From the IMG/VR virus record IMGVR_UViG_2609459794_000003: DNA of 19,084 nucleotides; one strand, given 5' to 3'. Positions 1-19,084 of the stretch are shown in pieces (position 1 is the stretch's first letter; the number at the start of each line of letters is the position of its first letter). The stretch comes from a virus. Lineage: Duplodnaviria; Heunggongvirae; Uroviricota; Caudoviricetes. The translations under genes and the position numbers were made by a program. The notes below the pieces were generated by a model that worked only from the letters and a program-made list of their open reading frames with translations, made no database searches and had not been told where the DNA came from.

Positions 1-42
1 TGAACCGCCCCGGGTTTCCTGGAGAGTGTTTTATCTGTGAAC

Positions 43-933
43 TCAGGCTGCCAGATCATCGTTTCCGATGGAAGCATAATAAGCTTTTTCTGCTTCTGCC
101 GGAGGAGTATGGCCCAGCCTTTCCAGCAATCGTCGATTGTTATACCAGTCCACCCACGTGAGTGTGGCCAGTTCCACTTCTGCACGGTTTTTCCAGCTCT
201 TACGGTGTATTACCTCCGCTTTGTAAAGACCATTGATGCTCTCCGCCATCGCGTTGTCATACGAGTCGCCTGTACTTCCTGTTGATGCCAGTAATCCGGC
301 TTCCTTAAGCCGCTGTGTGTAGGCCAGCGATACATACTGAGAACCTTTATCACTGTGATGGACCGTGCCGGACGGTCGACGGGCCCATAACGCCTGCTCC
401 AGTGCATCCAGCACGAATGTCGTTTCCATGGACGATGAGACCCGCCACCCCACGATGTATCCGGCAAACACATCAATGATGAACGCCACATAGACGAAGC
501 CCCGCCATGTGCTGACGTAAGTAAAATCAGCCACCCACAGCTGGTCAGGTCGTTCTGCCACGAACTGACGGTTTACGCGGTCGCCTGCGGCAACGGCTTT
601 CCGGCTGATGGTCGTACGGACCTTTTTACCCCGGAGAACACCGGCAAGTCCCATAACCGCCATGAGACGTGCCACAGTGCATCTGGCCACTCTGATACCT
701 TCCCGTAACAACTGACGCCAGACTTTACGCACACCGTATACCTTGTGATTTTCATCGTATACGCGCTGTATCTCTTTCTTCAGCCAGTCATCGCGCTGCG
801 CACGGGCACTGCGTTTATCCGGATGATGTCGCTGTTGCTGACAGTGGTAATACGTTGACGGGGCAATATGTAGTTCACTGCATACCGGTCCGACCCCGTA
901 CAGCTTACGCAGCTTATCCAGCAGTGGCATCAC
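43..933 (-). CDS. IS3-family transposase OrfB (DDE catalytic domain), probably expressed as an OrfAB fusion by -1 frameshift
   Basis: 296-aa ORF with retroviral-integrase-like DDE region (...WVADFTYV..., ...HHSDKGSQY..., ...[15 protein letters not shown]...). It overlaps orfA by a few nt in the -1 frame next to an A-rich stretch (GGAAAAAG). Confidence 0.9.
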
Positions 934-1256
934 TTTTTCCAGAGGCGGTCGAACTCCGCCTTCGCAAAATAAGCGGAAGCCTGGCGAAGGATATCGTTAC
1001 TGCGGCGCAGTTCACGATTTTCACGTTCCAGCTCTTTCAGACGCTGACGTTCAGCGGTGGTGAGCCCTCCATCACCGCCCCCGGTATCCCGCTCATGCTG
1101 GCGAACCCAGACACGCAGAGTCTCCGGCGTACAGCCAATCTTTGGAGCAATGGAACAAATTGTCGCCCATTGTGAGTCATATTCGCTCTGACTTTCCAGA
1201 ACCATACGGACTGCCCGTTGACGGACTTCGGGGGAAAAACGAGTATTTTTAGTCAT
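930..1256 (-). CDS. IS3-family transposase OrfA (HTH DNA-binding subunit)
   Basis: 108-aa [22 protein letters not shown]...[36 protein letters not shown], typical IS3-family OrfA with HTH and leucine-zipper-like C-terminus. It ends ...TGGAAAAAGTGA, overlapping the orfB start. Confidence 0.9.
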
Positions 1257-1307
1257 CCTGTTTACCTCTTTCTCAGGAAGTTTAGTCTCCAGGATTCCCG
1301 GGGCGGT

Positions 1308-1443
1308 TCAGTAAGGAGATTTTGGCTTGGTTGGATCTTTACGTGTTGCCTGTAGGCGGCCTGTTCGTATCCAGTTGGTGGCGGTTGGTCTGGATATCTT
1401 AAGAAACTGACAGGCCTCATCGAGTGTGAGGCTGTATGATTCC
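1308..1443 (-). pseudogene. xis: Xis/AlpA-type excisionase, 3' end truncated by the IS insertion
   Basis: 45-aa ORF MESYSLTLDEACQFLKISRPTATNWIRTGRLQATRKDPTKPKSPY with a GAGGT RBS 5-6 nt upstream. The HTH resembles phage excisionases, and the stop codon TGA is the reverse complement of the last three bases of the IS (1308-1310). Intact homologues are usually 60-80 aa. Confidence 0.55.
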
Positions 1444-10180: not shown

Positions 10181-11707
10181 ATGAAAAAAGCCATAGCATA
10201 TATGCGATTTTCATCACCAGGTCAGATGTCTGGTGACTCATTAAACCGACAGAGAAGACTTATTGCTGAATGGTTAAAGGTAAATAGTGATTATTATCTT
10301 GATACCATAACATATGAAGATTTAGGATTAAGTGCATTCAAAGGAAAGCATGCACAATCAGGAGCTTTTTCGGAATTTTTAGATGCTATAGAGCATGGTT
10401 ATATATTGCCAGGAACTACATTGTTAGTTGAAAGTCTGGACAGACTTTCAAGAGAAAAAGTCGGTGAAGCGATTGAACGTCTGAAATTGATTTTGAATCA
10501 CGGTATTGATGTTATAACTCTTTGCGACAATACAGTCTATAATATTGACTCTTTGAATGAGCCATATTCATTAATAAAAGCCATACTTATAGCACAAAGG
10601 GCAAATGAAGAAAGCGAGATAAAGTCAAGTCGGGTTAAATTATCATGGAAGAAAAAACGGCAGGATGCACTGGAATCAGGTACGATTATGACGGCGTCTT
10701 GTCCGAGATGGCTCTCCTTAGATGACAAAAGAACGGCTTTTGTTCCAGACCCCGACAGGGTGAAAACTATTGAGCTAATTTTTAAACTCAGGATGGAAAG
10801 GCGCTCATTGAATGCAATAGCCAAGTATTTAAATGATCATGCTGTAAAGAATTTCTCAGGAAAAGAAAGTGCATGGGGACCTTCTGTAATTGAAAAATTA
10901 TTAGCGAATAAAGCTCTGATAGGTATATGCGTACCTTCATATCGTGCAAGAGGGAAAGGGATAAGTGAAATCGCTGGCTATTATCCCAGAGTCATATCAG
11001 ATGATTTGTTTTACGCTGTACAGGAAATTCGGTTGGCACCTTTTGGTATTAGCAATAGTAGCAAGAATCCTATGCTAATAAATCTACTTCGAACAGTTAT
11101 GAAGTGTGAGGCTTGTGGTAATACCATGATTGTTCATGCGGTATCTGGAAGTTTGCATGGCTATTATGTTTGTCCGATGAGAAGATTACATCGATGTGAC
11201 AGGCCATCAATAAAAAGAGATTTGGTTGATTATAATATCATTAATGAATTGCTTTTTAATTGTAGCAAAATTCAACCAGTTGAAAACAAGAAAGATGCTA
11301 ATGAAACTTTAGAGTTAAAAATTATTGAGCTTCAGATGAAAATTAATAATTTAATCGTTGCATTGTCTGTCGCGCCTGAAGTTACCGCTATAGCAGAGAA
11401 AATAAGACTATTAGATAAGGAATTACGAAGGGCTTCGGTATCATTGAAAACTTTGAAGAGTAAAGGTGTAAATTCATTCAGTGATTTTTATGCTATTGAC
11501 TTAACCAGTAAAAATGGACGAGAGTTATGCCGTACACTTGCCTATAAAACATTCGAAAAAATCATAATTAATACGGATAATAAAACCTGTGATATCTATT
11601 TTATGAATGGCATTGTTTTTAAACACTATCCTTTAATGAAAGTAATATCCGCCCAGCAGGCGATAAGTGCTCTCAAATATATGGTTGATGGTGAGATTTA
11701 TTTCTAA
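10181..11707 (+). CDS. ybcK: large serine recombinase (resolvase/invertase catalytic domain, recombinase domain, zinc ribbon)
   Basis: 508-aa ORF with N-terminal serine-recombinase motif (AIAYMRFSSPGQ...SLNRQ), Cys cluster CEACGN...YYVCPMRRLHRCD and a C-terminal coiled-coil-like region. Low-GC gene. Confidence 0.9.
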   Translation: MKKAIAYMRFSSPGQMSGDSLNRQRRLIAEWLKVNSDYYLDTITYEDLGLSAFKGKHAQSGAFSEFLDAIEHGYILPGTTLLVESLDRLSREKVGEAIERLKLILNHGIDVITLCDNTVYNIDSLNEPYSLIKAILIAQRANEESEIKSSRVKLSWKKKRQDALESGTIMTASCPRWLSLDDKRTAFVPDPDRVKTIELIFKLRMERRSLNAIAKYLNDHAVKNFSGKESAWGPSVIEKLLANKALIGICVPSYRARGKGISEIAGYYPRVISDDLFYAVQEIRLAPFGISNSSKNPMLINLLRTVMKCEACGNTMIVHAVSGSLHGYYVCPMRRLHRCDRPSIKRDLVDYNIINELLFNCSKIQPVENKKDANETLELKIIELQMKINNLIVALSVAPEVTAIAEKIRLLDKELRRASVSLKTLKSKGVNSFSDFYAIDLTSKNGRELCRTLAYKTFEKIIINTDNKTCDIYFMNGIVFKHYPLMKVISAQQAISALKYMVDGEIYF

Positions 11708-12171
11708 ATAATGATCTCGGATTTTAAGTTATGCTATGGTGATAAAGTGCAAGACAGAATTAATTATCTTTGACGAAACTTAATGGGTAATTACTTTGTT
11801 TGCTCCCACAAGCGAGTTTTGTACGGCTGTATTGGGGTAGTAAATGAGCTATACAATCTTAATCATTTGTTAGGTGAGAACTCTTGGTCGCAGATTCAAA
11901 TACTGAAAATACGTGACAAATTATTATGAGCAAAATGGTGTATGTCACGTATTTTGAATGGTAGGTTAAAAAATAACACCGACTTTCGTAGGTATTACTA
12001 ATAATAAAGCAGAGTTTTTAGATAGTATCAATGTGCTTTGTGTATATTGTGGCAAATAATTGGGTTGGGGGTACAATTGTGATTGCTTTTGCATAAACAT
12101 TGCGCCTTTATGCATAATGAGATAAAGGAATATCAAATAAAATAACGATAGGTCATAACAAAGAGGTTTTT

Positions 12172-12723
12172 ATGAAAACACTTATCGTTTCAACTGTATT
12201 GGCATTCATAACATTTTCTGCGCAGGCTGCAGCATTTCAGGTCACTAGTAATGAAATAAAAACAGGAGAGCAACTTACAACGTCTCATGTCTTTTCTGGA
12301 TTTGGGTGTGAAGGTGGTAATACATCGCCCTCATTAACCTGGTCTGGTGTTCCTGAAGGTACCAAAAGCTTTGCCGTAACTGTATATGATCCAGATGCAC
12401 CTACAGGCAGTGGTTGGTGGCATTGGACTGTTGTTAATATTCCAGCAACAATAACATATTTGCCCGTTGATGCAGGGAGACGTGATGGAACAAAACTGCC
12501 GACTGGTGCTGTTCAAGGCCGAAATGATTTTGGCTATGCTGGGTTTGGTGGCGCATGTCCTCCTAAAGGAGATAAACCACATCATTACCAGTTTAAAGTA
12601 TGGGCTCTAAAAACTGAAAAGATTCCTGTAGATTCTAACTCCAGCGGAGCGTTAGTTGGTTATATGCTTAATGCTAATAAAATCGCAACCGCTGAGATAA
12701 CACCAGTTTATGAGATAAAGTAG
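12172..12723 (+). CDS. ybcL: secreted PEBP/RKIP-family protein (YbcL-like)
   Basis: 183-aa ORF with signal peptide MKTLIVSTVLAFITFSAQAAA and PEBP-type motifs (YDPDAP, GxHHY). Confidence 0.85.
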   Translation: MKTLIVSTVLAFITFSAQAAAFQVTSNEIKTGEQLTTSHVFSGFGCEGGNTSPSLTWSGVPEGTKSFAVTVYDPDAPTGSGWWHWTVVNIPATITYLPVDAGRRDGTKLPTGAVQGRNDFGYAGFGGACPPKGDKPHHYQFKVWALKTEKIPVDSNSSGALVGYMLNANKIATAEITPVYEIK

Positions 12724-12732
12724 GGTGAGAGT

Positions 12733-13530
12733 ATGCTGGCAAGAGGTAAGACTAACTTAAAGATCGAAGAAATACGGATGCATAAACATCATGAGATTCA
12801 TAGGGTTAAGCCTCTTATGCCAGCTTTGTGTCGTATCCGTCAGGGAAAGAAAGTTATCAATTGGGAGACGCATACTTTAACTGTTGATAATAATCAAATA
12901 ATATTATTTCCTTGTGGTTATGAATTTTATATTGAGAATTATCCTGAAGCAGGGCTTTATCTTGCAGAAATGCTTTACTTACCCATTGATTTAATTGAGA
13001 GTTTCCAAAAACTTTATACGGTAACTGATCAAATACGTAACAAAACAAGTTTCTTTTTACCTCAGAATCCTGAGTTAATATATTGTTGGGAGCAACTAAA
13101 AACATCTGTTTCCCGAGGCTTCTCAACTAAAATTCAGGAGCACTTAGCAATGGGCGTTCTACTTTCGTTAGGAGTGAATCATGTTAATCATTTACTTTTA
13201 TCATATAGTAAACAATCATTGATAAGTCGTTGTTATAACCTGCTGCTATCCGAACCCGGCACAAAATGGACAGCAAACAAGGTTGCTCGATATCTCTACA
13301 TTTCTGTTTCTACATTACATCGCCGTCTAGCAAGCGAGGGGGTAAGTTTCCAAAGTATACTGGACGATGTGAGGTTAAATAATGCGTTGTCTGCTATACA
13401 AACGACGGTAAAACCTATAAGCGAGATTGCCAGAGAAAATGGTTATAAGTGTCCTTCTCGTTTTACTGAAAGATTTCATAATCGTTTTAATATAACACCA
13501 AGAGAGATAAGAAAAGCTTCCAGAGAGTAA
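12733..13530 (+). CDS. ybcM: AraC/XylS-family transcriptional regulator (YbcM-like)
   Basis: 265-aa ORF with C-terminal AraC-type double HTH (...[40 protein letters not shown]...[30 protein letters not shown]...). Confidence 0.8.
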
Positions 13531-13646
13531 AAGTGTTTTAAGAAGGAGCAATTCTATCGATTTTGATTTTGGGAAATCAACACGGCATAATTATGTCACC
13601 GGAGCCTGAACAACTCCGGTGACTTCTGCGCTAAACGGGGACGTTT

Positions 13647-13748
13647 ATGCGCACATACAATCCAAACTCTCTTCTCCCTTCACAGATGCAGAAATGCACC
13701 TGCAATTCTTTGCATCTAGCGTTTGACCTCTGCGGAGGTGAAGCGTGA
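13647..13748 (+). CDS. ylcH: possible 33-aa small protein (YlcH-like)
   Basis: ATG at 13647 to TGA at 13746-13748 encodes [33 protein letters not shown]; its stop overlaps the ybcN GTG start. The assignment rests on position and length only. Confidence 0.35.
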
Positions 13749-14200
13749 ACCTCTCACAAGACGGCATCAAATTACATCGCGGCAACTTCACCGCTATCGG
13801 TCGGCAGATCCAGCCTTATCTGGAGGAGGGCAAATGCTTTCGCATGGTGCTTAAACCGTGGCGTGAGAAACGCAGTCTTTCCCAGAATGCACTCAGCCAC
13901 ATGTGGTACAGCGAAATCAGTGAATACCTCATCAGCAGGGGTAAAACGTTCGCCACTCCAGCTTGGGTAAAAGATGCTCTCAAACACACATATCTCGGTT
14001 ATGAAACCAAAGACCTGGTTGATGTCGTAACCGGTGATATCACCACTATCCAGTCGTTACGCCATACCTCCGATCTTGATACCGGAGAGATGTATGTCTT
14101 CCTGTGTAAGGTTGAAGCCTGGGCGGTGAATATTGGCTGCCACCTGACTATTCCGCAGAGCTGCGAGTTCCAGCTGCTCCGCGACAAGCAGGAGGCGTAA
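13745..14200 (+). CDS. ybcN: NinB-family protein (YbcN-like)
   Basis: 151-aa ORF with GTG start; nin-region position upstream of ninE; sequence matches DLP12 YbcN as recalled. Confidence 0.8.
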
Positions 14201-14370
14201 TGGCTACACCGCTTATTCGTGTCATGAACGGACACATCTACAGAGTATCAAATCGTCGTAAGCGTAAGCCTGAGCTGAAGCCATCCGAAATACCAACACT
14301 GCTCGGATATACCGCTAGCCTGGTTGATAAAAAATGGTTGCGACTGGCAGCAAGGAGGAATCATGGCTGA
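14200..14370 (+). CDS. ninE: NinE-like small protein
   Basis: 56-aa [59 protein letters not shown]; its ATG overlaps the ybcN stop (TAATG). Below the ORF-track cutoff. Confidence 0.7.
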   Translation: MATPLIRVMNGHIYRVSNRRKRKPELKPSEIPTLLGYTASLVDKKWLRLAARRNHG

Positions 14371-14653
14371 TTTGAGAAAAGCAGCGCGTGGTCGGGAATG
14401 CCAGGTAAGAATCCCTGGCGTATGTAATGGCAATTCTGAAACGTCTGTACTGGCACATATCCGGCTGGCTGGATTGTGCGGTACCGGTATCAAACCGCCA
14501 GACCTGATTGCCACCATTGCATGTTCTGCCTGCCACGACGAAATCGACCGCCGCACACATTTTGTCGATGCTGCATATGCAAAAGAATGCGCGCTGGAAG
14601 GTATGGCGAGAACACAGGTTATCTGGCTGAAAGAGGGGGTTATTAAGGCGTGA
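14363..14653 (+). CDS. ybcO: YbcO-like nin-region protein (Cys-rich, putative nuclease)
   Basis: 96-aa [45 protein letters not shown]...CSACHDEID; GGAGG RBS at 14354-14358. Confidence 0.8.
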
Positions 14654-15012
14654 ATACCTACAGTATCACATTACCCTGGCCTCCGAGCAATAATCGCTAT
14701 TACCGCCATAATCGCGGGCGCACGCACGTCAGTGCAGAGGGGCAGGCATACCGCGATAACGTCGCCCGAATCATTAAAAACGCAATGCTGGATATCGGCC
14801 TGGCTATGCCTGTGAAAATCCGCATTGAGTGCCACATGCCGGATCGCCGTAGCCGTGACCTGGATAATCTGCAAAAAGCCGCTTTTGACGCACTCACTAA
14901 AGCAGGTTTCTGGCTGGATGATGCTCAGGTCGTTGATTACCGCGTTGTGAAGATGCCTGTTACCAAAGGTGGGAGGCTGGAACTGACCATCACCGAAATG
15001 GGGAATGAATGA
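14650..15012 (+). CDS. rusA: RusA Holliday-junction resolvase
   Basis: 120-aa [53 protein letters not shown]...[15 protein letters not shown]... matching RusA as recalled; GTG start overlapping the ybcO stop. Confidence 0.95.
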
Positions 15013-15149
15013 TGTTTGAGTTTAATATGGCAGAACTTCTTCGCCACCGCTGGGGGCGTCTGCGCTTATATCGTTTCCCCGGCTCTGTTTTGACCGATTA
15101 CCGAATACTGAAGAATTACGCCAAAACACTGACAGGAGCAGGAGTATGA
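15009..15149 (+). CDS. ylcG: YlcG-like small protein (46 aa)
   Basis: [46 protein letters not shown]; its start overlaps the rusA stop. Below the ORF-track cutoff. Confidence 0.55.
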
Positions 15150-15234
15150 AGTCAGAGATAACAATCAACTAATACTGTTTTGTTGATTTTTGCTTGTAAT
15201 TGGCGTTCTGGTCTGAGTTTTGTGGAGTAAGTTG

Positions 15235-15612
15235 ATGCGTGATATTCAGATGGTTCTTGAGCGTTGGGGAGCGTGGGCGGCTAATAATCATGAAGATGTG
15301 ACCTGGTCGTCCATTGCCGCCGGTTTTAAGGGATTAATTCCTTCAAAAGTAAAATCTCGCCCGCAATGTTGTGACGATGACGCGATGATCATTTGCGGGT
15401 GCATGGCCCGTCTGAAAAAGAACAACAGCGATTTGCATGATTTATTGGTGGACTATTATGTCGGCGGCATGACTTTTATGGCGCTTGCACGTAAGCATGG
15501 GCGATCTGATTGTTGGGTTGGCAGGATGCTCCAGAAAGCTGAGGGCGTAGTGGAGGGTATGCTGATGGTGTTGGATCTCCGATTGGAGATGGATGCTGAT
15601 TGTTCAAAATAA
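15235..15612 (+). CDS. quuD: late-gene antiterminator Q (QuuD / phage 82/21 type)
   Basis: [62 protein letters not shown]...; Cys-rich zinc-binding region; located immediately upstream of a terminator, as for Q/qut/tR'. Confidence 0.85.
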
Positions 15613-15711
15613 TTAAAGGAAAAGTTGCTGTCTGATTCTCATTAGTCTAACATTTTAAATGTTGGAATCGCAACGTAGTTATTATCATATAACAGCTTGT
15701 TTCCTGATTTA

Positions 15712-15740
15712 GCCAGCCTCCCCAAAGGCTGGTTTTTTTC
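15712..15740 (+). terminator. tR'-like intrinsic terminator downstream of Q, preceded by a putative late promoter region
   Basis: CCAGCC-tccccaaa-GGCTGG followed by TTTTTTT. Candidate PR' upstream: TTGCTG (15625-15630), 17-nt spacer, TAACAT (15648-15653). Confidence 0.6.
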
Positions 15741-15767
15741 TAATAAGTATTATTTCGGGTAGGGATT

Positions 15768-16292
15768 TTATTGTTTAACCCATAATAATTCATTGACATT
15801 GAATCCCAACTTTTGAGCGGTTCGCACATAGTCTGCTTTTACTTTATCTGGAATAGTTGGGGTCCTTGCCAGAATCCATAGGTATTCTCTGTTCGGACCA
15901 CTGACAAGAGCATACTTATACTCATCATCCAGTTTGATTACATTATAGCCACCATAGAAGGGGCCAAAAAACGAAACCTTCAACGCTGCAGTTTTAGTAT
16001 CTCCAGTAAAGTATGCTTTACCTTCGCTCTCGCTCCATTTATTTTTCGTTGGATCGTATCCACGGTTAAGTACACGAATCCCTCCGTCGTTCCGTTTTCC
16101 ATAAGTAGCGCTGACCTGTTCCAGACCACGTTCGAACCGGTTCTCGAGGCGAGCTATTTCATACCATTTTCCGAGGTAGCGGTTGGCGTCAAAATTTGTA
16201 ATCGGCTGCACACCTTTAGGTGGTGTCGGGGCCTTACATGCTATAAGAGTGAAAGAGAGTGCAATGCCAGTCAACACAGGCCATAACTTCAT
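15768..16292 (-). CDS. bacterial lipocalin (Blc-like) outer-membrane lipoprotein
   Basis: 174-aa ORF with signal peptide and lipobox (LTGIALSFTLIAC); lipocalin motifs RYLGKWYEIARLENRFERG and SFFGPFYGGYNVI...YLWILAR. Clearly related to, but divergent from, chromosomal Blc. Confidence 0.8.
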   Translation of the reverse strand: MKLWPVLTGIALSFTLIACKAPTPPKGVQPITNFDANRYLGKWYEIARLENRFERGLEQVSATYGKRNDGGIRVLNRGYDPTKNKWSESEGKAYFTGDTKTAALKVSFFGPFYGGYNVIKLDDEYKYALVSGPNREYLWILARTPTIPDKVKADYVRTAQKLGFNVNELLWVKQ

Positions 16293-16484
16293 AATAAATC
16301 CTGTACTTTTGATAGTTGAGAGTAAGTATGAAAGATAGATGATTACGACCGATCACTTAAAGAACTTTCATACTATATTAGGAATAGTCCATAACAGAAA
16401 AATTGTCAGTGATGACGCCAGAAAGGCAATTTAGTCCGTGCACTACACAGTTTATGTGTTAATGAATTAGTCAAGGGGGAGAAT

Positions 16485-17444
16485 ATGATAAAAAAACCTG
16501 TGATTGGAATCAGCGGTTGTTTGGCCGGTTCTGCTGTTCGTTTTGATGGTGGTCATAAAAGAGCTGACTTTTTAATGGACAAATTAGTGGAATGGGTAAC
16601 ATTCAGACCAGTATGTCCGGAAATGGCTATAGGGCTGCCAGTTCCGCGTCCTGCTCTACGTCTTGTGCGCTCGACGCAAGGAAATATACGGATGTGTTTC
16701 AGCCACGACCAGAATGAGGATGTGACAGAGAGAATGACAGAGTTTAGTCGTTCTTATATGGACAAATTAAAGGATGTATCGGGGTTTGTGGTTTGTGCTA
16801 AATCTCCCAGCTGTGGCATGGAGCGCGTGCGTGTCTATGATGAAAATGGTAATCGAGGTCGTAAAGATGGAGTGGGACTATTTACGAGCACTTTGATGGA
16901 AAAGTTTTCCTGGCTACCGGTTGAAGAGGATGGGCGATTACATGATCCAGTGCTTCGTGAGAATTTTGTTGAAAGAGTTTTTGCTTTGCATGAGCTCAAT
17001 CACCTTTACAAGGAGAAATTATCAAGAAGAGAGTTATTAGCTTTTCATAGTCGTTATAAGCTTCAGTTGTTGGCGCATAGTCAGGCAGGCTATAAAGATA
17101 TGGGACCATTTGTGGCTGCAATGCACGAGTGGGCGGACCTTGAATCATACTTTGAGGTGTATCGTGATAAGCTGATGGCGATTCTCAGAAAACCTGCATC
17201 ACGTAAAAATCACACGAATGTGCTGATGCATATACAGGGGTATTTTAGTAACTACTTAAGTACACGCCAGCGTAAAGAGTTGAGCGAGGTTATACTTAAC
17301 TATCGTTCTGGCACATTACCTCTTCTTGCGCCGTTGACTCTGCTGAAGCATTATCTGGGTGAGTATCCTAATGATTACTTGCTTACACAGAATTACTTCG
17401 ATCCCTATCCGGACGAACTGGCTCTAAGACTGATGGTAAATTAA
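16485..17444 (+). CDS. two-domain DUF523 (TudS-like, Cys-rich) / DUF1722 (YbgA-like) protein
   Basis: N-terminus MIKKPVIGISGCLAGSAVRFDGGHKR...RPVCPE...CAKSPSCG resembles the Fe-S-binding DUF523 fold; the C-terminal half resembles YbgA-type DUF1722. Assignment from motif recall only. Confidence 0.55.
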   Translation: MIKKPVIGISGCLAGSAVRFDGGHKRADFLMDKLVEWVTFRPVCPEMAIGLPVPRPALRLVRSTQGNIRMCFSHDQNEDVTERMTEFSRSYMDKLKDVSGFVVCAKSPSCGMERVRVYDENGNRGRKDGVGLFTSTLMEKFSWLPVEEDGRLHDPVLRENFVERVFALHELNHLYKEKLSRRELLAFHSRYKLQLLAHSQAGYKDMGPFVAAMHEWADLESYFEVYRDKLMAILRKPASRKNHTNVLMHIQGYFSNYLSTRQRKELSEVILNYRSGTLPLLAPLTLLKHYLGEYPNDYLLTQNYFDPYPDELALRLMVN

Positions 17445-17786
17445 TTGTATGCGATATCATCCAAAAGGATGAGTTCCTGCATGCAGGATATTTACAATCG
17501 TAAAAACTACACTATGATACCCAGAGTGTCAGTTTGTATAAAAACTCTGTTTACGCTGAAGAAACCATTGAGATGCAACTTAAAGTTGGTAAACATGCCA
17601 GTCAAAATATATAATATTATGATTCCACGCAGCTATATATAATATAACAGATTGGTTTAATAATTTGTCTTTGTGAGTTAAATACATAATTTTATACTTG
17701 TGATGCAATGAGATTTTCCTTATTGTTGAACTGGCGAATATTGATTTTCCACCTATACTTACCTGGTGTAACCCCAATGATATCAG

Positions 17787-18527
17787 GTGGATAATATGCC
17801 ATACATATGTTCTATCATTTTGGTGTTGAACTCGTTTGATGTCCGAATTGGTAAAGAAGATATTTTGTTTAAAAAAGGAAGTGCTGTTCTCATTGATTAC
17901 AATTTAAAAGATTTTTTTTCATCAAATATAGATCATGTAATGATCGTAGATGTTGAAGAGAAAACAGTTAATGATTTCTTTAAAAGCAACACACTCTCAC
18001 CTTTTTCTGTAAGAAGGTTTTATCCGGCATACTTGATGGTGGAATGTGAAGATTTTTCATTGTTAAAGAACTTGATTGCATGCTTGAATTGTGATGGCAG
18101 AACTGTGGATTTTGTTAGAAATCAAATATCACTTGCATGTCTTGCTATCTTATCTTCAGAGAAAATAGTGCAAAGTTTTTTATTTGGATGTCTTAATAGT
18201 TTAGGAAGTAAAGTTAAGGCTATTATTCACACGGATATATCTGCAGCATGGAGACTTTGTGATATATCTTCAAGACTGTATCTGAGTGAAAGTCTGTTAA
18301 AAAGAAAATTAAAGCACGAAGGCTTATCATTTAGTAAGTTAATTCTTGAAGAGCGAATGGTGATGGCGGAAAGGTTATTAAGCTACAATTTATATTCTGT
18401 TGGAAAAGTTGCTGAGATATGCGGTTATGAAAACACGTCATATTTTGTAAGTGTTTTCAGAAGATATTTTGGTGTTCCTCCCCATCAATATTCATCAAGA
18501 CTTTTTTTAGAAAAAGACATGATGTAA
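17787..18527 (+). CDS. AraC-family regulator, AppY/GadX-like
   Basis: 246-aa low-GC ORF with C-terminal AraC HTH (WRLCDISSRLYLSESLLKRKLKHEGLSFSKLILEERMVMAERLL...VGKVAEICGYENTSYFVSVFRRYFGVPPHQY); N-terminus resembles AppY-type regulators. AT-rich upstream region. Confidence 0.8.
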   Translation: MDNMPYICSIILVLNSFDVRIGKEDILFKKGSAVLIDYNLKDFFSSNIDHVMIVDVEEKTVNDFFKSNTLSPFSVRRFYPAYLMVECEDFSLLKNLIACLNCDGRTVDFVRNQISLACLAILSSEKIVQSFLFGCLNSLGSKVKAIIHTDISAAWRLCDISSRLYLSESLLKRKLKHEGLSFSKLILEERMVMAERLLSYNLYSVGKVAEICGYENTSYFVSVFRRYFGVPPHQYSSRLFLEKDMM

Positions 18528-18588
18528 CGTGATGCGTTTTAATGATTTTGTAATTTTCGTATTTGATAATTGTATGATGCTTTCAGCT

Positions 18589-18620
18589 ACGCCAGAATAA
18601 TCGCTGGCGTTTTTCTTTTT
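18589..18620 (+). terminator. putative intrinsic terminator after the AppY-like gene
   Basis: ACGCCAG-aataatcg-CTGGCGT followed by TTTTTCTTTTT. Confidence 0.6.
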
Positions 18621-18715
18621 GAATAGATGTTCAAGCCTTACGCTAATGTAACTTCTATACCTTTCCTCTTCGTTCCGAACCGTGTACACCATCCGTTATT
18701 TGCGGAGGTGAGGCT

Positions 18716-18931
18716 ATGAAATCCATGGATAAGTTAACAACGGGCATTGCCTACGGCACCTCCGCAGGCAGTGCTGGCTACTGGTTTTTACAGCTGCTCG
18801 ATAAAGTCACGCCCTCACAGTGGGCAGCAATAGGTGTGCTGGGTAGCTTGGTATTTGGCCTGCTGACGTACCTGACAAACCTTTATTTCAAGATTAAAGA
18901 AGATAAGCGCAAGGCTGCGAGAGGTGAATAA
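18716..18931 (+). CDS. essD: class II pinholin, phage 21 S-type, with dual-start motif
   Basis: 71-aa [74 protein letters not shown] with two TM segments and Met1/Met4 starts (antiholin/holin pattern of S21). Confidence 0.9.
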
Positions 18932-19084
18932 TGCCTCCATCATTACGAAAAGCCGTTGCTGCTGCTATTGGTGGCGGAGCAATTGCTATAGCATCAGTGT
19001 TAATCACTGGCTCAAGTGGTAACGATGGTCTGGAGGGTGTCAGCTACATACCATACAAAGATATTGTTGGTGTATGGACTGTAT
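18931..19084 (+). CDS. rrrD: SAR (signal-anchor-release) endolysin, N-terminal part; gene continues beyond the window
   Basis: [51 protein letters not shown]...; Gly/Ala-rich weakly hydrophobic SAR domain. Its ATG overlaps the holin stop (TAATG). Confidence 0.8.

Follow-up and report, generated by a model that had tools for sequence, protein, structure and literature searches.

Cargo genes have been described between the antiterminator gene Q and the lysis gene S of lambdoid phages, stx of the Stx phages and nmpC of the DLP12 prophage of Escherichia coli K-12 being the closest examples. In the Stx phages the late promoter lies directly 3' of Q. Prophage slots of this type often house exclusion or defence genes.

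A second relevant system is RudS, a desulfidase that acts on tRNA 4-thiouridine (s4U). Cross-linking of s4U causes a growth delay and a stringent response, and RudS relieves both (Jamontas et al., NAR 2024, PMC11417400). The enzyme RudS_KT holds its [4Fe-4S] cluster with C17, C49 and C114, and its catalytic residues are E51, R60, S111 and S113. RudS_KT cut the UVA growth delay from approximately 105 to 60 min, a phenotype reported for this enzyme only. Expression in E. coli of RudS_vir, encoded by gp66 (H3V29_gp66) of phage 1H12, lowers tRNA s4U, although RudS_vir was the less active of the enzymes tested despite being well expressed (PMC11417400). The same study says that E. coli lacks RudS, and it does not discuss the prophage context of the viral gene or the lipocalin and regulator linked to it. 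A third system is the group of prophage-borne AraC regulators PatE, PsrB and AppY, which activate AR2 acid-resistance genes (PMC10877973; PMC10057817).

All three bear on the stretch analyzed here, a 19,084-nucleotide Caudoviricetes sequence (IMGVR_UViG_2609459794_000003; hereafter the window). Its Q-holin interval holds a moron block that recurs both in lambdoid prophages of the DLP12 and Qin types and among temperate coliphages whose genomes have been deposited (see table). The explanation we consider probable is that the block consists of two sub-modules whose genes serve lysogenic conversion from their own promoters, with additional read-through from Q upon induction.

A recurrent block in the nmpC slot

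The TAA stop codon of Q ends at 15612 and the ATG of the holin gene essD begins at 18716, which leaves an interval of 3103 bp (15613-18715). Its GC content is 0.383, versus 0.46 in the remainder of the window. On either side the window follows K-12 DLP12 closely, with 98% nucleotide identity to quuD up to 15594 and 96% to essD from 18705. Homology stops at the first of these positions and restarts at the second, so the block sits in the exact place of nmpC::IS5. It has the marks of a lambdoid moron: an insert of deviating GC content between conserved phage genes, replacing the nmpC of K-12 DLP12. The slot is identical and nmpC lies on the minus strand, like the lipocalin gene, but the cargo differs from both nmpC and stx. 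The Q protein itself is distantly related to Q21 (PDB 6p18, E 1.9e-8).

Features of the Q-holin interval and its flanks (positions in the window)
Feature	Position	Strand	Description
Antiterminator Q, quuD-like	15235..15612	+	125 aa; Pfam Phage_antitermQ 2.5e-51
Sub-module A	~15595-17544		Divergent lipocalin-rudS pair; GC 0.41; matches Enterobacteriaceae chromosomal locus
Candidate late promoter region	15662..15695	+	TTGGAA-15 nt-TATCAT, then ATATAACAG; presumed
Intrinsic terminator, candidate tR'	15711..15742	+	9-bp GC-rich stem and U7; 99 nt after Q
Outer-membrane lipocalin lipoprotein, Blc paralogue	15768..16292	-	174 aa; Lipocalin_2 and NCBIfam Blc subfamily
Divergent lipocalin/rudS intergenic region	16293..16484	.	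GC 0.34; own promoters presumed
rudS, predicted tRNA 4-thiouridine desulfidase	16485..17444	+	319 aa; TudS/DUF523 + DUF1722 fusion (Pfam)
AT-rich region 5' of regulator gene	17445..17795	+	GC 0.325; sigma-70-like hexamers
Sub-module B	~17545-18660		AraC/XylS regulator gene with terminator and presumed promoter; AT-rich, GC 0.32
AraC/XylS regulator, PatE/AppY/YdeO type	17796..18527	+	243 aa; HTH_18 and HTH_AraC
Intrinsic terminator 3' of regulator gene	18589..18620	+	~100 nt before holin; terminator scan
Holin essD, S21 type, first lysis-cassette gene	18716..18931	+	Pfam Phage_holin_2_1 2e-35 (P21-type holin)

Much of this had been anticipated. The initial annotation recognized a moron slot equivalent to that of nmpC, a low-GC block of roughly 3 kb, and AT-rich DNA 5' of the regulator gene, and all of these observations are borne out. 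Its gene identities (a Blc-type lipocalin lipoprotein on the minus strand, a DUF523+DUF1722 protein and an AraC regulator) also hold in every HMM assignment. What does not survive is the view that the cargo is unusual. Matches to the block turn up in 1152 of the 5426 complete E. coli genomes searched (approximately 21%), 999 of them at a cover of at least 80%; the sequences flanking it are matched in 4508 genomes. PGAP already annotates its genes as lipocalin, YbgA family and HTH, and full-length PHROG families exist for all three proteins. A comparison of the Q-S junction, which the initial annotation had proposed, finds the same gene order in 71 of 80 IMG/VR loci. The block also occurs in 12 deposited phage records, including those of the temperate coliphages IdasGreatGrand and 1H12, where the order is kept. 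It is therefore common, already annotated prophage cargo at this very position, the finding that had been named in advance as fatal to the claim of novelty, and its gene content is not new. A full-text literature search combining lipocalin, YbgA, prophage and AraC found no paper that treats the block as a unit.

The block is built from two sub-modules, A and B. Their limits are revealed by strain 23AR1183, which retains A and has IS1 in place of 17545-18660. Only the lipocalin gene and the 5' end of rudS are retained in the remnant found in E. coli B. An Rfam search at gathering thresholds returned nothing within the block; the sole match in the window is an IS3 ALIL pseudoknot at 859-975.

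What if the block is functionless, hitch-hiking DNA that is decaying in defective prophages? The E. coli B remnant would fit, as would the matches to IS1, IS2, IS3 and IS911 that mark insertions or truncations in some genomes. However, in comparison with phage 1H12, whose alleles are about 10% apart from those of the window, dN/dS is 0.065 for the lipocalin gene, 0.108 for rudS and 0.273 for the regulator gene. Purifying selection acts on all three. The high cover in 999 genomes and the intact order in most viral contigs also speak against decay, as do the intact catalytic residues of RudS and the detection of the lipocalin protein (see below). This reading is already disfavoured, and we regard it as very improbable.

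RudS and its partner lipocalin

The 319-aa protein carries PF04463 (2-thiour_desulf/DUF523) at residues 7-149 (3e-40) and PF08349 (DUF1722) at residues 192-309 (2e-40). C12, C44, E46, R55, S107, S109 and C110 are all present, which makes the seven-residue catalytic set complete. Judged by its sequence, the protein is RudS, a predicted [4Fe-4S] desulfidase that would erase tRNA 4-thiouridine. Its nearest characterized relative is RudS_vir, which is 93.1% identical, has the same length and the same TudS+DUF1722 fusion, and shares the Cys12/Cys44/Cys110 ligands and the catalytic Glu, Arg, Ser and Ser residues. The three cysteines are listed for both RudS_vir and RudS_ST (Table 1 of PMC11417400). 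The genes also occupy the same place, between the lipocalin and AraC genes of the Q-S interval. However, the two proteins differ at 22 amino acids, and the known activity is that of the RudS_vir allele.

The association of rudS with a lipocalin gene extends beyond phages. Among 62 chromosomal rudS loci from other Enterobacteriaceae, 42 have a divergent upstream lipocalin gene, the product of which is 69-82% identical to that of the prophage. In 36 of these 42 the lipocalin gene faces a MerR-transthyretin-rudS cluster, an arrangement (lipocalin, MlrA-like MerR regulator, transthyretin-like protein, RudS) found in Enterobacter, Leclercia, Lelliottia and Citrobacter. Salmonella ORF319/STM1389 is likewise under a MerR regulator (PMC11417400). 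The pair is divergent in chromosome and prophage alike, with RudS 66-77% identical. However, the prophage copy lacks the MerR and transthyretin-like genes, and it sits inside the phage late region beside an unrelated AraC gene. Two of the 42 loci (Citrobacter sedlakii and Citrobacter JGM124) have the lipocalin gene directly beside rudS, as in the prophage, with intergenic distances of 188-229 nt versus 192 nt. BLAST found no similarity between the intergenic region of the prophage pair and that of C. sedlakii. By eye, the lipocalin-proximal part resembles that of the chromosomal orthologues, and Enterobacter has CTACACTTAA there. On these comparisons, the prophage pair appears to be a copy of a conserved chromosomal locus of Enterobacter, Leclercia and Citrobacter.

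The lipocalin matches Lipocalin_2 (PF08212) at 7e-44 and the Blc subfamily model NF007786 with 316 bits (cutoff 267). Solved Blc structures match it at 1e-66 to 1e-69 (PDB 3mbt, 3.5e-69). A lipobox, LIAC, lies at residues 16-19, and Lys rather than Asp at position +2 is an outer-membrane sorting signal. The E. coli Blc protein (b4149, encoded next to ampC) has the same fold family, a lipobox and the same mature length, and the prophage lipocalin passes the cutoff of its subfamily. However, the two are only 60% identical, and Blc is encoded at another locus and belongs to another orthologous group. Identity to the rudS-linked lipocalins of Enterobacter and C. sedlakii is 80-82%. The prophage protein is therefore a Blc paralogue, and an orthology with the ampC-adjacent blc was rejected.

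The lipocalin is the same protein as WP_000780581.1, which was detected by proteomics in strain CCUG 70745 and rose two- to threefold after meropenem (PMC13459554). Envelope stress might explain this increase, as might partial induction of the prophage.

An outer-membrane lipoprotein in such a slot brings superinfection exclusion to mind. The lipocalin might, like Cor and Llp, hide a receptor, and a tRNA pool altered by RudS might hinder incoming phages. The lipobox and sorting signal fit this proposal, and so does a slot type in which exclusion and defence genes are frequent. Nevertheless, PADLOC (E <= 0.001) gave zero matches for the three proteins, which leaves a role in defence without support. 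Moreover, orthologues of the lipocalin and rudS occupy a conserved, non-phage MerR locus in many Enterobacteriaceae, and housekeeping or stress physiology fits such a locus better than defence does. We consider a role in exclusion highly unlikely.

The AraC regulator

The regulator has a C-terminal double helix-turn-helix, with HTH_18 (1e-14) at residues 161-237 and HTH_AraC at 2e-11. Its ATG start agrees with the RefSeq call and with the N-termini of PatE and AppY; a start at the GTG at 17787 would lengthen the protein to 246 aa. Identity to PatE is 54% over 235 aa (E 2e-88), rising to 67% in the C-terminal DNA-binding half, and identity to AppY is 31%. It is neither a YdeO nor a GadX equivalog by NCBIfam cutoffs: YdeO, the best model, scores 126.8 bits against 348, and GadX 85.7 against 500. 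PatE (Z0321/ECs_0287), PsrB and AppY share its size and architecture, and they are also prophage-borne and located in AT-rich DNA. They differ in position: rather than in the Q-S interval, PatE is encoded close to the end of Sp1, a prophage remnant, and AppY at the right end of DLP12. By tblastn, neither the window regulator nor PatE had a homologue in EDL933 between 1.625 and 1.690 Mb (CP-933N and neighbours). PsrA and PsrB were not found in that segment and were therefore left out of the regulator comparison. With 54% identity to PatE as the basis, we expect the regulator to feed into the gadE/hdeA acid-resistance regulon of the host. The AT-rich DNA upstream contains promoter-like sites at 17491-17518 and 17586-17615 with 10 of 12 matches, and sigma-70-like sites are no more numerous there than in shuffled sequence.

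Transcription of the block and what it may serve

The first candidate terminator folds at -14.9 kcal/mol (z -3.8, equalled by 0 of 200 shuffles) and the second at -11.3 kcal/mol (z -2.6). The late promoter is presumed to lie between Q and the first of them. The 9-nt island ATATAACAG is the only part in common with the otherwise unalignable DNA that follows quuD in K-12 (75 nt past the Q stop here, versus 69 nt). A sensitive motif search of the K-12 quuD-essD interval against that of the window recovered the flanks and words of 9-12 nt at chance level, so conservation does not locate the promoter. A regulatory region published for the DLP12 lysis operon (-121 to +650; cited in PMC7918800) might be situated 3' of the cargo slot. 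The statement in the initial annotation that all three genes are downstream of tR' is unproven: the intrinsic terminator 99 nt after Q is strong, but the promoter position is presumed, and the second terminator precedes the holin gene by approximately 100 nt. Read-through from Q is plausible.

Perhaps, then, the block serves lytic growth rather than the lysogen, being expressed through the Q-dependent late operon after induction by sunlight or UV. RudS would strip s4U, and there would be no UVA cross-linking, no uncharged tRNA and no burst of ppGpp to hold up the synthesis of late proteins. Antisense transcription would shut off the lipocalin gene. Several observations are consistent with this. 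Both rudS and the regulator gene point the same way as Q and the lysis genes and are flanked by two plus-strand terminators that Q-modified polymerase would ignore, and a leader segment 3' of Q is found only with the cargo (1113 versus 1152 genomes). Temperate phages with deposited genomes retain the block. The MerR regulator of chromosomal rudS is lost from the prophage copy, which means that control of rudS must come from elsewhere. The relief of the s4U cross-linking growth delay and stringent response by RudS also fits (PMC11417400). However, the late promoter is placed by presumption, and a strain carrying the minus-strand lipocalin gene does produce the protein. In addition, the genes remain intact, with purifying selection acting on them, in defective DLP12-type prophages that are incapable of lytic growth, which indicates a benefit to the host. 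A purely lytic role is thus improbable in our estimation.

A combined scenario is about as doubtful. Here solar UV induces the prophage, and the Q-dependent late transcript supplies RudS. With s4U erased, tRNA would escape cross-linking, there would be no stringent response, and translation would not be arrested during virion production. In the lysogen, the lipocalin would handle photo-damaged envelope lipids, having come from the same ancestral MerR-controlled locus as rudS. No paper connecting Blc-type lipocalins with light regulons came up in a literature search on LitR, lipocalin and photolyase. If true, this would be a first example of a temperate phage that safeguards its induction-coupled gene expression with a tRNA-modification eraser, and Blc-type lipocalins would be linked functionally to the near-UV response, a link absent from PMC11417400.

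The probable explanation remains lysogenic conversion with read-through upon induction. In the lysogen, the genes would be expressed from their own promoters. RudS would convert photosensitive tRNA 4-thiouridine to uridine, and the expected gain is a shorter near-UV growth delay. The lipocalin would be expected to contribute to envelope maintenance and the regulator to acid tolerance. Upon induction, Q-modified RNA polymerase starting just 3' of Q would pass both terminators toward the lysis genes, reading rudS and the regulator gene in the sense direction and the lipocalin gene in antisense.

The regulator may add a further uncharacterized protein to the group of prophage AraC regulators by which acid resistance is rewired. 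The lipocalin has a more practical implication, as omics studies could easily mislabel it as Blc. The pairing of Blc-type lipocalin genes with rudS is conserved in enterobacterial chromosomes and in phages, and it offers an inexpensive, testable route to the functions of both. Lastly, the absence of RudS holds for K-12 in the present survey, but about one-fifth of complete E. coli genomes have a prophage copy of this predicted tRNA s4U eraser. Therefore, the statement that E. coli lacks RudS, and the UVA/s4U physiology worked out in K-12, would fail for many natural isolates.

The cargo interval and its frequency

The window represents a lambdoid prophage of the DLP12 type. K-12 DLP12 is 98% identical to positions 11279-15594 (ybcK, ybcL, ybcM, ybcN, ninE, ybcO, rusA, ylcG, quuD), and from 18705 onward, on the essD side, the identity is 96%. 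Because both flanks are homologous to DLP12, the interval between them is the exact slot of nmpC::IS5 in K-12. Strain EC96, whose prophage occupies the argU tRNA adjoining intD, is 100% identical across 15200-19084.

From the end of Q at 15612 to the start of essD at 18716 there are 3103 bp with a GC content of 0.383, compared with 0.46 in the remaining window. The three ORFs that the initial annotation placed here are real, and HMM searches upheld their domain assignments. The lipocalin ORF matches Lipocalin_2 and, above cutoff, the NCBIfam Blc subfamily model. The 319-aa ORF joins a 2-thiouracil desulfurase/DUF523 domain to DUF1722, and the regulator carries an AraC-type HTH_18 domain (best NCBIfam model YdeO, sub-threshold). 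For the regulator, the most likely start codon is the ATG at 17796 (243 aa), which agrees with the RefSeq call and with the N-termini of PatE and AppY. Defence-system models (PADLOC) matched none of the three proteins.

This combination had been regarded as unusual prophage cargo, a view that is not borne out. The cargo alone (15760-18560) has matches in 1152 of 5426 complete E. coli genomes, covering at least 80% of its length in 999; with the query extended by Q and essD, 981 genomes reach at least 80% cover. Its alleles fall at three identity levels (at least 99%, about 95% and about 90%), and both DLP12-type and Qin-type prophages host it. Twelve deposited phage records contain the block, namely IdasGreatGrand (99.2% identity) plus, at 89.5%, 1H12 and the Lambda_ev/Lambda_2E9-type phages; in 1H12 and IdasGreatGrand the order of the genes was verified. 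The 319-aa protein is encoded on 127 IMG/VR contigs, and the order Q+, lipocalin-, rudS+, araC+, holin+ holds in 71 of 80 fetched IMG/VR loci. PGAP already labels the genes (lipocalin family protein, YbgA family protein, helix-turn-helix or AraC regulator), and each of the three proteins has a full-length match to a PHROG family whose function is unknown. Given this abundance and existing annotation, the block is a common, annotated moron at this position. Two contigs binned in a 'Candidatus Nanosynbacter' MAG (isolate D148_maxbin.008) encode Q, lipocalin, RudS, regulator and holin at 93-100% amino-acid identity to the E. coli block, almost certainly through binning contamination.

Elsewhere in the window, a second low-GC block (0.32-0.39) of three genes lies between ren and ybcN. 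EC96 has a frameshifted DUF4041 gene there instead of ybcK-ybcL-ybcM, which makes this another exchangeable cargo slot; PADLOC matched none of the three products. The IS3 copy at the left end has the opposite orientation and a different junction from that in the otherwise near-identical EC96 prophage, suggesting IS3-mediated inversion or independent insertion.

Features of the window and of the comparison loci
Feature	Location	Strand	Remarks
IS3 copy	1-1310		left end; ALIL frameshift pseudoknot at 859-975
ybcK, ybcL, ybcM	within 10181-13530		DLP12 genes: putative recombinase, 508 aa; 183 aa; AraC-like, 265 aa
Candidate tR', intrinsic terminator	15711-15734 + U7	+	-14.9 kcal/mol, z -3.8; 99 nt past Q stop
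Intrinsic terminator	18589-18620	+	3' of regulator gene, about 100-110 nt upstream of essD
Intrinsic terminator, K-12 DLP12	L005 7257-7290		about 100-110 nt before essD
Block remnant, E. coli C43(DE3)	L006 6007-6870		in a Qin-like prophage
Enterobacter cloacae cluster	L033 3024-5960		lipocalin divergent from MerR (MlrA_helical + MlrA_C domains), transthyretin/HIUase-like, rudS; 35 similar loci
Nanosynbacter-binned contigs	L060 1-3209; L065 1-2113		

RudS and the lipocalin

The 319-aa protein is, as judged from its sequence, RudS, in which TudS is fused to DUF1722 and which erases 4-thiouridine from tRNA (Jamontas et al., NAR 2024, PMC11417400). The enzymes assayed in that study include gp66 of Escherichia phage 1H12, under the name RudS_vir (PMC11417400). 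Its gene lies inside the same lipocalin-rudS-araC block, and it is 93.1% identical to the window protein. Cluster cysteines C12, C44 and C110 are kept (C17/C49/C114 of RudS_KT), as are catalytic Glu46, Arg55, Ser107 and Ser109 (E51/R60/S111/S113). Every RudS variant expressed in E. coli reduced tRNA s4U, RudS_vir having less activity than its expression would predict, and RudS_KT shortened the UVA growth delay (PMC11417400). The same paper describes E. coli as being without RudS. Among the genomes surveyed here, K-12 indeed has none, but roughly 21% of the complete genomes have this prophage copy.

With just 60% identity to K-12 Blc, the lipocalin belongs to a rudS-linked paralogue group and is not blc proper. 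A proteome study of E. coli CCUG 70745 quantified WP_000780581.1, by sequence identity the exact window lipocalin: its level went up 2.0- and 3.0-fold in the first 15 min after meropenem, together with envelope-stress lipoproteins (PMC13459554). Its detection means that a strain encoding the lipocalin does produce it, from the minus strand. That 2026 study labels the protein 'Blc' (PMC13459554), which, given the low identity to the chromosomal protein, masks its prophage origin. In C43(DE3), of the B lineage, a block remnant retains an intact lipocalin gene and rudS reduced by IS3 to its first 147 nt. The BL21(DE3)-type assay hosts of PMC11417400 thus have the lipocalin without a functional rudS.

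Where did the pair come from? When each species was represented by a single genome, chromosomal RudS (66-77% identity) turned up in Citrobacter, Kluyvera, Enterobacter, Leclercia, Lelliottia, Klebsiella oxytoca, Pectobacterium and other taxa. Of 62 loci outside E. coli, 42 have a divergent lipocalin gene upstream of rudS, its product sharing 69-82% identity with the window protein, and in 36 of these 42 it faces away from MerR(MlrA-like)-transthyretin-like-rudS. In C. sedlakii and Citrobacter sp. JGM124 lipocalin and rudS stand side by side, like the prophage block. By eye, the lipocalin-proximal intergenic part resembles the chromosomal copies; Enterobacter has CTACACTTAA there, a sequence similar to a sigma-S type -10 element. 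BLAST of the prophage lipocalin/rudS intergenic region against C. sedlakii detected no similarity. A MerR neighbour of rudS has been noted in E. cloacae and Salmonella, with light-inducible control suggested; the lipocalin neighbour is not mentioned and the transthyretin-like gene not discussed (PMC11417400). Perhaps the chromosomal lipocalin and transthyretin-like genes share a near-UV or stress regulon with rudS. The prophage pair itself probably derives from this conserved enterobacterial locus, a modest new point.

The regulator and a possible coupling to Q

Along its whole length the regulator shares 54% identity with PatE (ECs_0287/Z0321), from 37% in the first 120 residues to 67% in the DNA-binding half; with AppY it shares 31%. 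The prophage AraC/XylS proteins PatE, PsrB and AppY are activators of gadE, hdeA and further genes of AR2 acid resistance (PMC10877973; PMC10057817), and by analogy the best inference is a similar role here. The regulator gene and the AT-rich DNA before it (GC 0.32) are separable from the rest: strain 23AR1183 has IS1 instead of 17545-18660 and still contains lipocalin and rudS. K-12 DLP12 also has a terminator before essD, in DNA unrelated to that of the window. It seems that this slot always has a terminator just ahead of the holin.

The window Q is a distant relative of Q21. The candidate tR' is a strong terminator and lies where lambda and Stx phages would lead one to expect tR'. Beyond 15594 the window is unrelated to K-12 save for ATATAACAG, which stands at much the same distance from the Q stop, and predicted -35/-10-like hexamers, a candidate late promoter in the window, lie immediately 5' of it in both. 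The leader segment 15596-15766 is found only alongside the cargo (1113 genomes, against 1152 for the cargo). It is plausible, though the read-through as a whole is inferred, that Q carries transcription over rudS and the regulator in sense and the lipocalin in antisense. The K-12 lysis-operon promoter may lie downstream of the slot, to go by the regulatory region (-121 to +650) that a paper on the DLP12 lysis module cites for this operon (PMC7918800).

Between the window and 1H12 alleles, dN/dS is 0.065 for the lipocalin, 0.108 for rudS and 0.273 for the regulator; selection maintains all three genes. The block is ordinary lysogenic-conversion cargo of known families, abundant and annotated in public data, and one of its genes, rudS, has already been characterised experimentally through a near-identical phage copy. 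What is modestly new is its frequency in E. coli, its probable origin from the enterobacterial rudS locus and the unexplained lipocalin-rudS linkage.
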